Shown here piece after piece: positions 23,844 to 27,928 of a stretch of DNA of 54,250 nt; the first letter of the stretch is position 1; every line of letters starts with the position of its first letter. A program made the translations under genes and the position numbers. Below the pieces are notes generated by a model that did no database searches, was not told where the DNA came from, and worked only from the letters and a program-made list of their open reading frames with translations. Source of the stretch: a virus (taxonomy: Duplodnaviria > Caudoviricetes); the IMG/VR virus record IMGVR_UViG_3300033485_000018, positions 1 to 54,250 of that record; one strand, given 5' to 3'.

Positions 23844-24487
23844 AGGAGAACCCCTTTGCGGCTCGTGCGAACGGCCGCGGTTGCAAAAGCGCGCCACCCA
23901 GGGATCCCCGGATCTGCGCCATGGGCCGCCGTCACTTTCTCGAGCTTGGTGACGTCGGGCATCAGGTATTCGCGGGGGATCGCGGCCGCGTCCAACACCT
24001 CCCCCGTCCAAACGATCTTGGATGACGCGCCCGTAGTCGCCGGCACGAATGCGGCGGCCTGCTCGTAGGTCTGCTCGGCCGCGGCCGCGTTGCCGTTCCG
24101 CGCCGCTTCCACAGATGCCGTGAGCAACGCGGCGCGCGCTTGCGCCTGCGCCACGTCCCACGCACCGATCTTGCTCTTGAGTAGCGCTTCGGCTTGCTTC
24201 AGCGCTCGCAGGCCGGGCCGAAAAGTCGCATCGATGTCGGCCGCGACCTTCTTGAGGGGTGCGACCCATGATAGCCGCTTGGCATCCGCGGTGTCGTGGT
24301 TCGCCGCGATCTCCGCCATTGCGTTCGAAGCGAATACTCGATCGGCTTCTTTCGAAATCACGAGACTCTCGCAGAACGCGACCACCTCCCCGCCCTCACG
24401 GGCGAGCTTCGCCGTGAAAGCGTCAACCTCTGGCATCACCACGGCGACCCCCGTCTCGGGTGCGCTTGCTGCTTTCTTCCTAGCCAT
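23840..24487 (-). CDS. Gam/Gp157-like coiled-coil protein
   Basis: Long helical body with C-terminal IPREYLMPD..KL..IPG motif; AAGGGAG RBS. Confidence 0.5.
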   Translation of the reverse strand: MARKKAASAPETGVAVVMPEVDAFTAKLAREGGEVVAFCESLVISKEADRVFASNAMAEIAANHDTADAKRLSWVAPLKKVAADIDATFRPGLRALKQAEALLKSKIGAWDVAQAQARAALLTASVEAARNGNAAAAEQTYEQAAAFVPATTGASSKIVWTGEVLDAAAIPREYLMPDVTKLEKVTAAHGADPGIPGWRAFATAAVRTSRKGVLL

Positions 24488-24989
24488 GTTTCTCTCCCTT
24501 GGTTTTCGCGAGAAGCGCCTGCGCTTCCGCGATTGCTGTGTTGAGCACCGACTCGGCCTGCGCCAGCGCGGCGAGCTTTTCGTCGTATGCGGCGCGTTCC
24601 GCGATGGGTAGCGGAAGCGGTGTGCAAGCGCGGCCGACTGAGCGGCTATGCTTCATGCAAGTCCCACCAGCACGCCGCAGACAGAAATCGTCTGACAGCT
24701 TCCCGCACTTCGGACACCAGATCGTATGAAGGTTGCCCATGGTGCAGGTGATTGCGAGATAGGGTGTCGCGTACCCGTTTCGCATCTCGATCCACCGTAG
24801 TTCTGCGATTTCGTGGCTTCCGCAATCGCTGCAAGCGGCTGGATCGGTGTGTATGGGCGCCAGCAAGCGGCGCAACCGTTCTGCGGATTGCTCGATCTCC
24901 GTCGTATGCTCCCCCGCTTCTGCGACGCCTTGCTGTTCAAGGTTTGCGAGCAGATTCTCCGCCGCGCAGATCAAGTCTTGCTTCGTCAT
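24480..24989 (-). CDS. Hypothetical protein with Zn ribbon
   Basis: CSDCGS and WCPKC motifs; AAGGA RBS before MTKQDL. Confidence 0.55.
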   Translation of the reverse strand: MTKQDLICAAENLLANLEQQGVAEAGEHTTEIEQSAERLRRLLAPIHTDPAACSDCGSHEIAELRWIEMRNGYATPYLAITCTMGNLHTIWCPKCGKLSDDFCLRRAGGTCMKHSRSVGRACTPLPLPIAERAAYDEKLAALAQAESVLNTAIAEAQALLAKTKGEKHG

Positions 24990-24990
24990 G

Positions 24991-25263
24991 TCACGATCCT
25001 TTCTTCGTCGGGCGCGGCTTGCAGGCTGGTCCGACAGAAATCCCGTGCAGGCTACAATACCCGTCGGGGTGGCGCAGGCAGACGGTCGAGAAGTGCTGTT
25101 CGCACAGCGGACACCAAACGCTATCCCCGTTTGGACCTTCTCCGGTTTCGCGGCCGCTGTTAAGCGCCACCCATTGCAGCGCCTCGACCTCGGGGTTGCC
25201 ACATTGCGAGCAGATATAGGTCGCTTGTGGTTTCGCGGCGCGGATCACGTTTTGATTCTGCAT
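24991..25263 (-). CDS. Small Zn-finger protein
   Basis: CSQCG..WCPLC and C..H..C..H..C motifs; GAGGAG RBS. Confidence 0.6.
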   Translation of the reverse strand: MQNQNVIRAAKPQATYICSQCGNPEVEALQWVALNSGRETGEGPNGDSVWCPLCEQHFSTVCLRHPDGYCSLHGISVGPACKPRPTKKGS

Positions 25264-25314
25264 GGTTCGATCCTCTCCTCGGGTTTCCGCGTGGCGTCGT
25301 GCTACGCTTCGGCT

Positions 25315-25371
25315 CCCGCGAAGCGCCCCTGAGGGCGCGTTTCGGCCGTGCCACGGGCCTCATCAGGCGGG
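25315..25371 (-). ncRNA. Hammerhead ribozyme, type I (copy 1, UUC site)
   Basis: cccgc-CUGAUGA-ggcc(cguggcac)ggcc-GAAA-cgcgccc(ucag)gggcgc-UUC-gcggg. Confidence 0.75.
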
Positions 25372-26304
25372 CTAATCTTCGTGAATCACAAAAGCTAGGG
25401 TGTGCTGCCCCCATGGCGCTGCGATCGTGACCTCCACGCCAGTGCAGGGGCGCTCGATGTAGCGCTCGCCACCGTCGCAACCATCGCAGCCTTCCCCTTG
25501 ACACGCTTCGCAGGGTTCGAAGTCGTCCACTCCCAGGCGAGATATGCGGCCGATGCTGGTCGCGCTTTCCGCCAAGCCCAATCGCGCTGCTAGGTCGTGA
25601 AGGGATCGCACGATCTGCACGCACGCCTCGTAGGCGCGTTGACTGGGCACAGGTCGAACGTGCCCAACGCTATAGCCCCGAATGACGAGACTCGCCGCGC
25701 CTACGTTGCGAGCTATTTGCGCGGCAATCCACTCCTCGGCTTCCTCCCATCCTCGAGTGCCGAGCGGGTAACCGTGCTGCACGGCCGCCTTGAGATCATC
25801 GGATCCATGTTCCGCGGCCCACGCCAGCAAGGCCGCTTCGCGCTGCGCGGTTAGCGCGATCGTTTCGGCGCGCTCTCGCTCAAGCTGCGCCGCTTGCTCG
25901 GCTTCGCGCCTCTGGATTTCCGCGTCGACCTGCGCCCGCAGATCATCATCAAGATAACCGCGACACTCCCCGTAGGGTTGCCGCTCGGCACCTGCGAGAT
26001 AGGCTTGTGCGTGCGCGACAGCTTGCGCACGAGCCGCGGCTTCGCGCGCCTGCTCCTCGGCCCGCGCCTGCGCAGCGCGCGCCGCCGCAGCTTGCACCGC
26101 GGCTACTACGTCGGCCGTCGCGGTCGAATCCGCGCAGACTTGCCAGTGCGGCCCGCACAAGTGACCGGCACTATCGACCGAGATCTGCGCCCGCTCTTCG
26201 GGTGTCAGCGCGGCGAGCAAGGCCGCCAGGTCGATGGGCTGGGGGCCCCATTTGGTTTCGCTGCGGATGAAATCTGCCTTCTGATCTACGCAAACTGTCA
26301 CCAT
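25372..26304 (-). CDS. Hypothetical protein, coiled coil with C-terminal CxxCxGxG motifs
   Basis: 310 aa; CEACQGEGCDGCDG; GGAG RBS. Confidence 0.65.
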   Translation of the reverse strand: MVTVCVDQKADFIRSETKWGPQPIDLAALLAALTPEERAQISVDSAGHLCGPHWQVCADSTATADVVAAVQAAAARAAQARAEEQAREAAARAQAVAHAQAYLAGAERQPYGECRGYLDDDLRAQVDAEIQRREAEQAAQLERERAETIALTAQREAALLAWAAEHGSDDLKAAVQHGYPLGTRGWEEAEEWIAAQIARNVGAASLVIRGYSVGHVRPVPSQRAYEACVQIVRSLHDLAARLGLAESATSIGRISRLGVDDFEPCEACQGEGCDGCDGGERYIERPCTGVEVTIAAPWGQHTLAFVIHED

Positions 26305-26410: not shown

Positions 26411-27496
26411 CTACGCGGCGACCTGTACCGCGTCGAGCAGGCGCGACGCGCGCCGCTCAAGGTCAAGCCGTTCGTCGCCGAACGGGGCTTCCTGCGCCTG
26501 GGCCGTGAGGCCCTGCACAACCGACCAGAGCGCTCGGGGATTGGCCCCCGGCTCGGCTTCGGCCAGCTCGAGCGCGCGCTTGCTTTCGTTCTGGGTGAAG
26601 CCGCGCGCCTTGAGCCAGCTCTTGACGTCCTTCTCGCTGCGCCCGACCTCGATTTCTCGCGCTTTTCGGATCATGCTGACGGTCTCTTCACTGCCCGCCG
26701 TCAGGTAGCGCTCGATGGCGGGCTGCGCTTCGCGGATGTAGCGCATGGGGCCGCCCGAGGTGTGCCGGATCTTGAGGCTGGCGAGCTCGCGTCCACCCCA
26801 AATGATCCGGTTGTCGCAGATCGTGCGGTACAGAAAGCCGATGATCTCCAGGGTCGCCGCGCCCACCTCGGAATTCCTCGCAATGAATCCGCGGTAGAGC
26901 TGCTCGGTGCCTTGCGTGCCCGGTACCTCGATCGCGTTTTGGTCATCGACCAGGCACACGAAGCAGTCGCGGTCGCTCGCGTAGAGCGTCGTGGCGCGCT
27001 TCGGATTCGAGGTGGCGTAGGATGCGGCGGGCACTTTCCACCGCTCCAGGTCCAGGTGTTGGAGAATCGCGCCGCTCAGCTCGGCGTCATAGATCCGGCC
27101 GTATGTGTCTGAGGTAATGGCGTCGACCCCCCAGGCGTTCTCACCCTTGCGTAGCAGGAGCTTAGCGTCTTCGCGTTGCTGCTCGAGCGAATACTGCAAA
27201 GGGATCTGCGCCAGCTCCGCGGGGAGCGTGCGTAAATAGCCGGCCGGGGCGCCCGCGCGTTGCGCGAGTTGCCCGAAGGCCCAATGCGACAGGACGGCGC
27301 CCGACCCCTTCGTGGGGTCGGTGAGAAGCAACCGCCCGCCATCGTCAGCTCTGACTTGCAGGTGATCGAGCGCGACGCCGCGCTCCAAAGAAGCGGCGCG
27401 CTTGCTTTCGTTGAAAGCGTGCAGCTCGGGCACGCTCACGAAGCGCTGATCGTTAGGACGGCTGGCCCACTCGCGGCTGATCTGCATGGTATCCAT
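26411..27496 (-). CDS. DUF932/DUF945-family protein
   Basis: SREWASRPNDQRF, TLYASDRDCFVCLVD, RGFIARNSEVG, ICDNRIIWG, IRHT motifs; GAGGAG RBS. Confidence 0.8.
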   Translation of the reverse strand: MDTMQISREWASRPNDQRFVSVPELHAFNESKRAASLERGVALDHLQVRADDGGRLLLTDPTKGSGAVLSHWAFGQLAQRAGAPAGYLRTLPAELAQIPLQYSLEQQREDAKLLLRKGENAWGVDAITSDTYGRIYDAELSGAILQHLDLERWKVPAASYATSNPKRATTLYASDRDCFVCLVDDQNAIEVPGTQGTEQLYRGFIARNSEVGAATLEIIGFLYRTICDNRIIWGGRELASLKIRHTSGGPMRYIREAQPAIERYLTAGSEETVSMIRKAREIEVGRSEKDVKSWLKARGFTQNESKRALELAEAEPGANPRALWSVVQGLTAQAQEAPFGDERLDLERRASRLLDAVQVAA

Positions 27497-27543
27497 GGTA
27501 GCTCTCCTCGGGTTTCCGCGTAGCGTTATGCTATGCTTCGGCT

Positions 27544-27602
27544 CCCGCGACGCGCCGCGATCGGCGCGTTTCGGCCCGTGCCACGGGCCATCGTCAGGCG
27601 GG
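27544..27602 (-). ncRNA. Hammerhead ribozyme, type I (copy 2, GUC site)
   Basis: cccgc-CUGACGA-u-ggcccgu(ggc)acgggcc-GAAA-cgcgccg(aucg)cggcgc-GUC-gcggg. Confidence 0.85.
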
Positions 27603-27622
27603 TTTACTCGTTGACCACGAAA

Positions 27623-27673
27623 GCGCTCTGCGGGCTGGCCCAGGGCGCGAACCCTGAGCCGGCCGACGGAGCC
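27623..27673 (-). repeat. Duplicated intergenic hairpin element, copy B
   Basis: ggctccgtcggccggctcagggt(tcgc)gccctgggccagcccgcagagcgc directly after TAG. Confidence 0.7.
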
Positions 27674-27928
27674 CTAGGCCACCTCGCGGTTGCATAACAC
27701 CAGCACGGCGTCTCGGCCGATCGGTGTTCTTGGGACCCACGTGATCGTCGTCAGGATGATGAAGCCCCCACCGCCTTCCATGGCCGCATCACGCTGTCTC
27801 ACAGCTAGCAGAGCTGCGGCCGCGGAATCGTGGTTCTCGATCCACCCCGGGCTGCTTATGATGGTCCAATGATCCCCGTCGATCATTTCTTCGATTGTGA
27901 CGGTGGTTCTCCGAATTTCGATACTCAC
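27674..27928 (-). CDS. Hypothetical protein
   Basis: GTG start overlapping upstream stop; AGGAGG RBS. Confidence 0.6.
   Translation of the reverse strand: MSIEIRRTTVTIEEMIDGDHWTIISSPGWIENHDSAAAALLAVRQRDAAMEGGGGFIILTTITWVPRTPIGRDAVLVLCNREVA

Follow-up and report, generated by a model that had tools for sequence, protein, structure and literature searches.

Hundreds of bacterial hammerhead ribozymes were reported by Perreault et al. (2011), many of them near prophage genes and several flanking single genes, and cleavage was observed in vitro and in E. coli (PMC3088659). The same account describes stem I/II pseudoknots in all three hammerhead types and proposes that hammerheads process long phage transcripts into gene-length mRNAs (PMC3088659); a review describes the role of prokaryotic hammerheads as open and the link to phages as persistent (PMC6155905). 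The CChMVd (+) hammerhead carries an extra A at position 9/10.1 and is active at a moderately lower rate (PMC1636495), and an extra base at 9/10.1 is conserved in the hammerheads of Penelope-like elements (PLEs; PMC4209133). In the crystal structure of the PK hammerhead (8YDC; Zhan et al. 2024) a pseudoknot replaces helix II and the fold is pistol-like (PMC11300833), and in fungal and plant RNA viruses self-cleavage of type I hammerheads in the 5'-UTR is needed for translation initiation (PMC13725137). The type I hammerhead model in Rfam, RF00163 (Hammerhead_1), spans 45 positions; its stem III has 4 bp and lacks a loop, and no base is inserted after A9. Synthetic insulators of the RiboJ type place a hammerhead and a hairpin ahead of a ribosome-binding site (RBS); these are engineered and use a type III satellite-RNA hammerhead.

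The window analysed here is a complete virus record of 54,250 bp with direct terminal repeats and 64% G+C, for which a type I hammerhead, followed by a small hairpin and the RBS of a DUF932 gene, had been predicted on the minus strand. Each hammerhead element listed in that original prediction was located at 27602-27544 (HH1; Table 1), where the minus strand reads CCCGC-CUGACGA-U-GGCCCG-UGGCA-CGGGCC-GAAA-CGCGCCG-AUCG-CGGCGCG-UC/GCGGG, the slash marking the predicted cut between C27549 and G27548. Every conserved hammerhead core base is present (C3-A9, G12-A14, A15.1-U16.1 and C17), with A27569 paired with U27550 as A15.1-U16.1, and the topology is that of type I, in which stems II and III are closed by loops and stem I is open (5'-I-core-II-GAAA-III-UH-I-3'). 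The 7 bp given earlier for stem II include a possible U-A closing pair. Core bases and topology, together with the covariation in relatives, the second copy and the independent profile matches described below, uphold the type I identity, and on these comparisons HH1 is a genuine, conserved type I hammerhead, one of two in this phage genome, for which cleavage is predicted. The kind of element is already known from phages and prophages, and HH1 adds one member.

Table 1. Coordinates of HH1, HH2 and the associated features in the window.
Feature	Position	Strand	Remarks
HH1, type I hammerhead	27544..27602	-	core, topology, comparative and profile evidence
HH1 stem I	27602-27598 with 27548-27544	-	CCCGC/GCGGG
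HH1 core	27597-27591	-	CUGACGA; C3 U4 G5 A6 N7 G8 A9 in order
HH1 extra U	27590	-	between A9 and G10.1
HH1 stem II and loop	27589-27573	-	GGCCCG/CGGGCC; base pair G27589-C27573 is G10.1-C11.1
HH1 loop II	27583-27579	-	UGGCA
HH1 GAAA	27572-27569	-	G12 A13 A14 and A15.1
HH1 stem III	27569-27550	-	A-U plus CGCGCC(G)/(C)GGCGCG
HH1 GUC triplet (C17 = C27549)		-	H17 is not G
HH1 3' tail, AGCC	27540..27543	-	GCC predicted to pair with loop II G27582, G27581 and C27580
HH1 leader (predicted 3' product)	27497..27548	-	hairpin and Shine-Dalgarno sequence GAGGAG
DUF932-like gene, 361 aa, phrog_1362	26411..27496	-	PHROG match, blastn matches, Pfam match below cut-off
310-aa ORF	25372..26304	-	without Pfam or PHROG match
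HH2, second hammerhead	25315..25371	-	R1 53.8 bits; window-excluding profile E 2.5e-8
HH2 leader	25264..25319	-	hairpin GCGUAGC/GCCACGC, CCCG, GAGGAG at 25280-25275, ATG at 25263
90-aa ORF after HH2 leader	24991..25263	-	Cys-rich, CxxC-type motifs, weak zinc-ribbon-like matches

HH1 is like the prophage hammerheads of Perreault et al. in its phage context, in the occurrence of several same-strand copies flanking genes and in its predicted pseudoknot brace; the examples assayed there are other sequences (PMC3088659). The extra U is a single inserted base at the core position that is also expanded in the CChMVd (+) and PLE hammerheads, which belong to a viroid and to eukaryotic retroelements and differ from HH1 in their tertiary contacts, and the insertion is at a site where the natural hammerheads described in those reports tolerate one (PMC1636495, PMC4209133).

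RF00163 has the same core and open-stem-I topology as HH1, which differs from it in having a stem III of 7-8 bp with a 4-nt loop, an extra U and a longer stem II. Across the whole window Rfam reported nothing at gathering score, tRNAs included, no Rfam hammerhead was found at E<=10 in the 301 nt around HH1, and RF00163 gave no match to the whole genome. The best Rfam score for HH1, 13.4 bits, comes from a 76-nt slice in which RF00008 matches part of the element, namely the core and stem II, and neither the RF00163 cut-off of 34 bits nor the RF00008 cut-off of 48.5 bits is reached. A scan of the loci of seven relatives likewise gave no usable hammerhead match. On one of these with a canonical core (L264, discussed below), RF00163 scores 11.9 bits, with the long stem III forced onto a model helix of 4 bp that has no loop; since stem III is misaligned in this way, the failure reflects the Rfam model and not the RNA. 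We considered the silence of Rfam as evidence against a hammerhead and rejected it, as a stem III of this length is more than the model can accommodate. The lack of a covariance-model match, one of two grounds for refutation named with the original prediction, formally holds for the Rfam models; with a model of the phage family HH1 scores 79 bits.

This covariance model, R1, was built from the phage family with HH1 included and HH2 left out, and HH2 scores 53.8 bits (E 5e-13) from outside the model. A profile HMM built from 91 family sequences, with the window excluded, finds both HH1 (E 3.5e-13) and HH2 (E 2.5e-8). A third R1 match, at 25898-25958 on the minus strand, scores 17.5 bits (E 0.008). 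It falls within the 310-aa ORF and has neither C3 nor GAAA nor a stem I, and it is most likely due to chance or else a very old remnant. A generic hammerhead descriptor (stems I and II of at least 4 bp, stem III of at least 5 bp including A15.1-U16.1, and 0-1 base inserted after A9) matches one site in the window, HH1, and none in 300 dinucleotide shuffles. The minimum free energy (MFE) fold of the 116-nt HH1 precursor is the three-way hammerhead junction; its energy z-score is weak (-1.35), because GC-rich shuffles also fold well. An extended stem I in the MFE fold was dropped, as it competes with the pseudoknot tail and is without comparative support.

When the 2.1-kb region was compared by blastn with 50,697 phage records, the motif alone was matched (window 27605-27535), at 80-82% identity, in four records of three Firmicutes phages: Faecalibacterium phage FP_Brigit (two records), Flavonifractor phage Castelnaud and Christensenellales phage NatCom_6392. 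A viral pattern scan, in which nothing beyond the core and the stem I 3' strand with its tail was fixed, gave at least 116 loci, and a related pattern gave at least 151 loci in bacterial genomes. Among the bacterial matches listed, most are in Clostridia/Bacillota, others are in Cyanobacteria, Desulfosporosinus, Dehalococcoidia and further groups, and contigs often carry 3-4 copies each. The spread over several phyla suggests wide horizontal movement of the hammerhead module. We also note, among the listed matches, prophage-like clusters with an identical stem I sequence in Bacillota, Cyanobacteria, Chloroflexota, Bipolaricaulota, Saccharibacteria and others.

An alignment of 92 distinct sequences including the window (A2) fits the hammerhead structure closely, with 94.6% of cells paired compared with 35-41% when partners are slid by 1-3 columns. 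Double changes occur at 10 of the 20 pairs and in 241 cells (93 in shuffles), and are found at five of six pairs in stem II, four of six in stem III and one of five in stem I. Because the search patterns fixed CTGAYGA, GAAAC, GTC and the stem I 3' strand, the invariance of the core and of the stem I 3' strand in A2 is no evidence; independent support for the core is confined to the blastn matches, HH2 and two L264 copies, none of which came from the fixed-core pattern. In a separate parse of 167 sequences, the extra base after A9 is U in 131 and G in 3, and 33 sequences lack it.

Among 19 covariance-model matches in related phages, two have core U4 changed to C, which indicates that core-mutated (dead) copies exist in the family. 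Two such copies (L426 and L427, in virus records G002 and G003) are clustered, with cores reading CCGAUGA and CCGAAGA, helices kept and intact copies adjoining; they are likely to be inactive or unusual variants. Five related records have 1-6 copies each, on a single strand per record and spaced by 0.3-2.4 kb. At the Castelnaud locus (L002 1203-1262; ON453903.1) a deposited 'hypothetical protein' CDS spans the hammerhead on the opposite strand, and all neighbouring genes are annotated on the strand opposite to the ribozyme; given the ribozyme strand, the local gene calls may need review.

The tail that follows stem I in HH1 reads AGCC, and a partner for it is available in loop II. In A2 the loop II GG is invariant and the next C nearly so, none of these bases being required by the search pattern, and it was this conserved GGC that raised the suspicion of pairing with the tail GCC. 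Scans with alternative tails returned at least 121 loci with A followed by a base other than G, 23 with AG followed by a base other than C, and none with AGC followed by a base other than C. Tail and loop change together, as in AGACC with GGUC, AAACC with GGUU, AAGCC with GGCU and AACCC with GGG, and further in AUCCC with GGGA, AGGCC with GGCC and AGGUC with GACC. The pseudoknot could be counted in register in 135 sequences, 32 of 167 being skipped as unparsable, and the third pair is C:G in 76, G:C in 17 and U:A in 16, with 110 paired in all; when the tails were permuted, the mean number paired was 68.6 and the maximum 81 in 2000 trials. These patterns point to a pseudoknot of 3-4 bp that joins loop II to the nucleotides immediately following stem I, and in which the third pair covaries; in HH1 an extra U27583.G27539 wobble is possible. 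HH1 and the 8YDC ribozyme would both have a hammerhead core stabilised by a pseudoknot, with the difference that in HH1 helix II is intact and only loop II pairs with the 3' tail (PMC11300833). The HH1 family, as seen in these alignments, is a large phage and prophage subfamily marked by a one-nucleotide insertion, in most cases U, between A9 and G10.1 and by this predicted pseudoknot. We met no description of an extra-U/AGCC-tail subfamily or of an RBS-coupled leader in the article texts searched, and we do not claim that they are unpublished.

The second hammerhead, HH2, is 2.2 kb downstream of HH1, where it follows the 310-aa ORF with no gap after its stop codon (25374-25372). Its core, CUGAUGA at 25366-25360, is without the extra U, GAAA is present, the triplet is UUC, and a C.U mismatch at 15.2/16.2 adjoins A15.1-U16.1. 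The loop UGGCA is as in HH1, the tail AGCC is at 25314-25311, and the cut is predicted between 25320 and 25319. The mismatch raises the possibility that HH2 is weaker than HH1, and it may be so. Together the two hammerheads bracket a two-gene cassette consisting of the DUF932-like gene and the 310-aa ORF.

The cassette lies inside a minus-strand block that encodes primase/helicase, methyltransferase, helicase, DNA polymerase, thymidylate kinase and exonuclease. With crude GC3-based ORF calling this block, at 23.8-44.9 kb, is a replication and nucleotide-metabolism module; the plus-strand blocks at 1-23.7 and 45.6-54.1 kb are presumably structural and packaging, judging by strand and layout alone. 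Two overlapping candidate genes follow HH2 on the minus strand at 24480-25263, the 90-aa ORF (ATG at 25263, with a good Shine-Dalgarno (SD) sequence) and a 240-aa ORF (GTG at 25202), and the conserved leader favours the 90-aa ORF. In a scan of 23.5-31.5 kb for promoter- and terminator-like sites, none was found from the upstream ORF stop (27674) to HH1, and none was flagged between either hammerhead and the start codon that it serves. A terminator-like hairpin at 25413-25396 on the minus strand is about 25 nt upstream of HH2, inside the 310-aa ORF; counts of terminator-like sites in the scanned region equal those in shuffles. Upstream of HH1, the 70 nt that separate it from the stop codon (27674) of a 255-aa ORF are filled by a long, GC-rich, imperfect hairpin (27603-27685, minus strand; MFE -41.4 kcal/mol, z -2.0), which is without a U-tract and was not flagged as a terminator.

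Downstream of the predicted HH1 cut, 5'-CGGG (27547-27544) can pair with CCCG (27512-27509), enclosing a hairpin at 27536-27518, and GAGGAG at 27509-27504 is followed by the ATG of the DUF932-like gene at 27496. Both the small hairpin and the GAGGAG site of the original prediction are present; the hairpin arms (GCAUAGC/GCUACGC) carry one A.C mismatch and pair at six of seven positions. The HH2 leader repeats the HH1 leader almost base for base, through GGAAACCCGAGGAGAG and the ATG at 25263. The energy z-score of the HH1 leader as a single sequence is weak (-0.96). In the lineage of the window, four leaders from two phages share a fold of 15 pairs in which an outer CGGG/CCCG helix abuts the SD sequence and the inner hairpin differs in sequence, with 3 compensatory pairs.

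The coupling to an RBS extends through the family. An SD sequence and start codon are found downstream of the cleavage site in 92 of 93 distinct members, at a median of 40 nt and at 30-49 nt in 75, and among 89 members the stop codon of an upstream same-strand ORF comes to within 3 nt of stem I in 41 and to within 20 nt in 58; these positional counts are inflated by sequence relatedness, and the ORF calls are mechanical. Counts of ORF overlap around the hammerheads are noisy, as stop codons are scarce in a motif so rich in G+C. In 48 of 55 distinct predicted 3' products the start (GCGGGAGCC...) has a downstream complement, (C)CCGC or GCUYCC, and a 5'-terminal hairpin (at least four of the first seven bases paired) is predicted, against an already high rate of 58% in shuffled controls, and the mean MFE of the products is -8.2 kcal/mol compared with -5.3 kcal/mol in the controls. 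Two features of the HH1 family, the spacing of about 40 nt to an RBS and the 5' hairpin predicted after cleavage, go unmentioned in the text of PMC3088659 considered here.

The DUF932 label of the downstream gene stands in part: in blastn, stretches of 75-200 nt are ~69-80% identical to genes on plasmids, many of which carry a DUF932 annotation, and the Pfam DUF932 match of the protein (19.6 bits, E 8.5e-4) is below the curated cut-off of 23. The protein matches phrog_1362, of unknown function, over its full length (E 3e-32). No relatives were found in bacterial genomes, and homologues are present in seven viral contigs. The closest, with 77% amino acid identity, is in L264, the sole one of the seven with hammerheads. 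In L264 the upstream hammerhead has a GUA triplet and no extra U, ends 46 nt before the ATG of the gene and has the stop codon of an upstream ORF directly in front of it, and a second hammerhead starts 6 nt after the DUF932-like gene. For the other six, which are less similar (42-60% identity), a search of 2.5 kb around the gene gave no hammerhead at E<=0.01, and Rfam gave no ribozyme; the ribozyme is therefore dispensable for the DUF932-like gene. Most genes downstream of other family members are small and lack annotation: of 66 downstream proteins, 51 are without a PHROG match and none is phrog_1362. A general link between hammerheads and DUF932 was therefore rejected on both counts; since the downstream genes are varied and none of the 66 is phrog_1362, the association is with gene boundaries and not with DUF932.

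Hammerhead cleavage leaves a 2',3'-cyclic phosphate and a 5'-OH end, and in bacteria 5'-OH ends and 5' hairpins slow 5'-end-dependent decay. The most probable scenario, to which as a whole we assign a probability of about 0.78, is that a hammerhead of this phage subfamily cuts the minus-strand RNA of the replication module and frees an mRNA with a leader. HH1 would be transcribed within the replication-module RNA, would most likely fold co-transcriptionally and would cut between C27549 and G27548. The upstream RNA would keep nearly the whole ribozyme, with the stem II and III hairpins, and end in a 2',3'-cyclic phosphate, and the downstream RNA would begin 5'-OH-GCGGGAGCC. This new 5' end is predicted to re-pair with the CCCG adjoining the SD sequence, giving a structured leader of about 40 nt in which GAGGAG is left unpaired, 8 nt ahead of the DUF932-like start codon, and may in this way affect the stability and translation of the mRNA. 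HH1 and HH2 together would release the two-gene cassette as a discrete mRNA, with the next gene gaining a similar leader. The production of a 5'-OH mRNA with a structured leader by processing of a polycistronic transcript, as had been suggested for this locus, fits both the comparative data and the hypothesis in PMC3088659. As to the description of the transcript as 'early', what the data show is no more than the position of HH1 in a block of replication genes.

The proposed working of HH1 resembles that of the RiboJ-type insulators by analogy, in that upstream RNA would be removed and a defined, hairpin-bearing 5' leader left before the RBS; HH1 differs in being natural and of type I. The RNA-virus hammerheads offer another parallel, being of type I and just upstream of a viral ORF, in a different system: those act in eukaryotic cap-independent translation, and HH1 belongs to a DNA phage with a Shine-Dalgarno site (PMC13725137). 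A more far-reaching version of the scenario, which we advance tentatively and with some doubt, is that the functional unit is a one-shot device of about 115 nt comprising hammerhead, pseudoknot tail, leader and RBS, in which cleavage is required for expression. Before cleavage GCGGG-AGCC would be held in stem I and the pseudoknot, and after it the same bases would re-pair with the downstream CC(C)G or GCUYCC, making the cut irreversible, capping the 5'-OH end with a hairpin and setting the SD sequence at a fixed distance. If this is true, self-cleavage would be needed for stable, efficient expression of the downstream phage gene, and the device would be a natural counterpart of the synthetic ribozyme insulators and of the ribozyme-dependent translation of RNA mycoviruses.

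An active ribozyme could also act in the opposite sense, down-tuning or uncoupling expression by splitting the cassette from the upstream transcript, such that the products decay differently or one is degraded, and so setting the stoichiometry or timing of replication-module genes. The anatomy expected is identical to that of the preferred scenario, clusters of 2-6 hammerheads punctuate runs of small genes, and the variety of downstream genes (51 of 66 without a PHROG match, none phrog_1362) would suit a generic punctuation of operons. The conserved 5' hairpin and fixed SD distance look mRNA-preserving, however, rather than destructive, and we think this explanation unlikely. Less probable still is that hammerhead, leader and RBS form the boundary of a selfish or mobile cassette that travels with small accessory genes, brings little benefit and is in some cases decaying. 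The distribution is sporadic enough for this, in that one of the seven phages with the homologous gene has hammerheads, and motifs of ~80% identity recur in phages whose hosts are unrelated and across several phyla of bacteria; core-mutated copies exist, and HH2 is imperfect. Stems II and III and the pseudoknot, however, bear the marks of strong purifying selection and of compensatory change, which indicate that most copies have been kept functional.

A further possibility, of a kind raised by Perreault et al. (PMC3088659), is that HH1 and HH2, which bracket the cassette on one strand, act as a pair and that the 2.2-kb RNA between them is ligated into a circular or spliced RNA, by the reverse reaction of the ribozyme or by an RtcB-type ligase, the hammerhead ends being suited to such ligation; we regard it as highly improbable, as spliced or circular products were undetected in that report, the predicted post-cleavage hairpin would sequester the 5' end, and the circular RNAs known from hammerheads are far shorter than this interval. 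That HH1 is a conserved, non-catalytic look-alike, such as a protein-binding site or a terminator-like element, might be argued from its failure to score with Rfam models and from the insertion in its core, and is improbable to a similar degree given that HH1, HH2 and both L264 copies retain the full set of catalytic-core bases (the last three found without fixing the core), that variation is confined to helices and loops, that the predicted tertiary contact is of exactly the kind that accelerates hammerheads (PMC3088659), and that no U-tract follows the structure.

Knowledge of hammerhead chemistry is unchanged by these findings. They do expose an annotation gap, in that the Rfam 15 models miss an abundant subfamily entirely, which implies that current counts of phage hammerheads are too low; this gap would be closed by a covariance model made for the subfamily. 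The genome described here is clean and complete, with two modules bracketing a defined cassette, and its hammerheads belong to a family of hundreds in which ribozyme, pseudoknot, leader and RBS spacing are open to comparison and mutation. The ribozyme-leader-RBS architecture makes the role of phage hammerheads directly testable.
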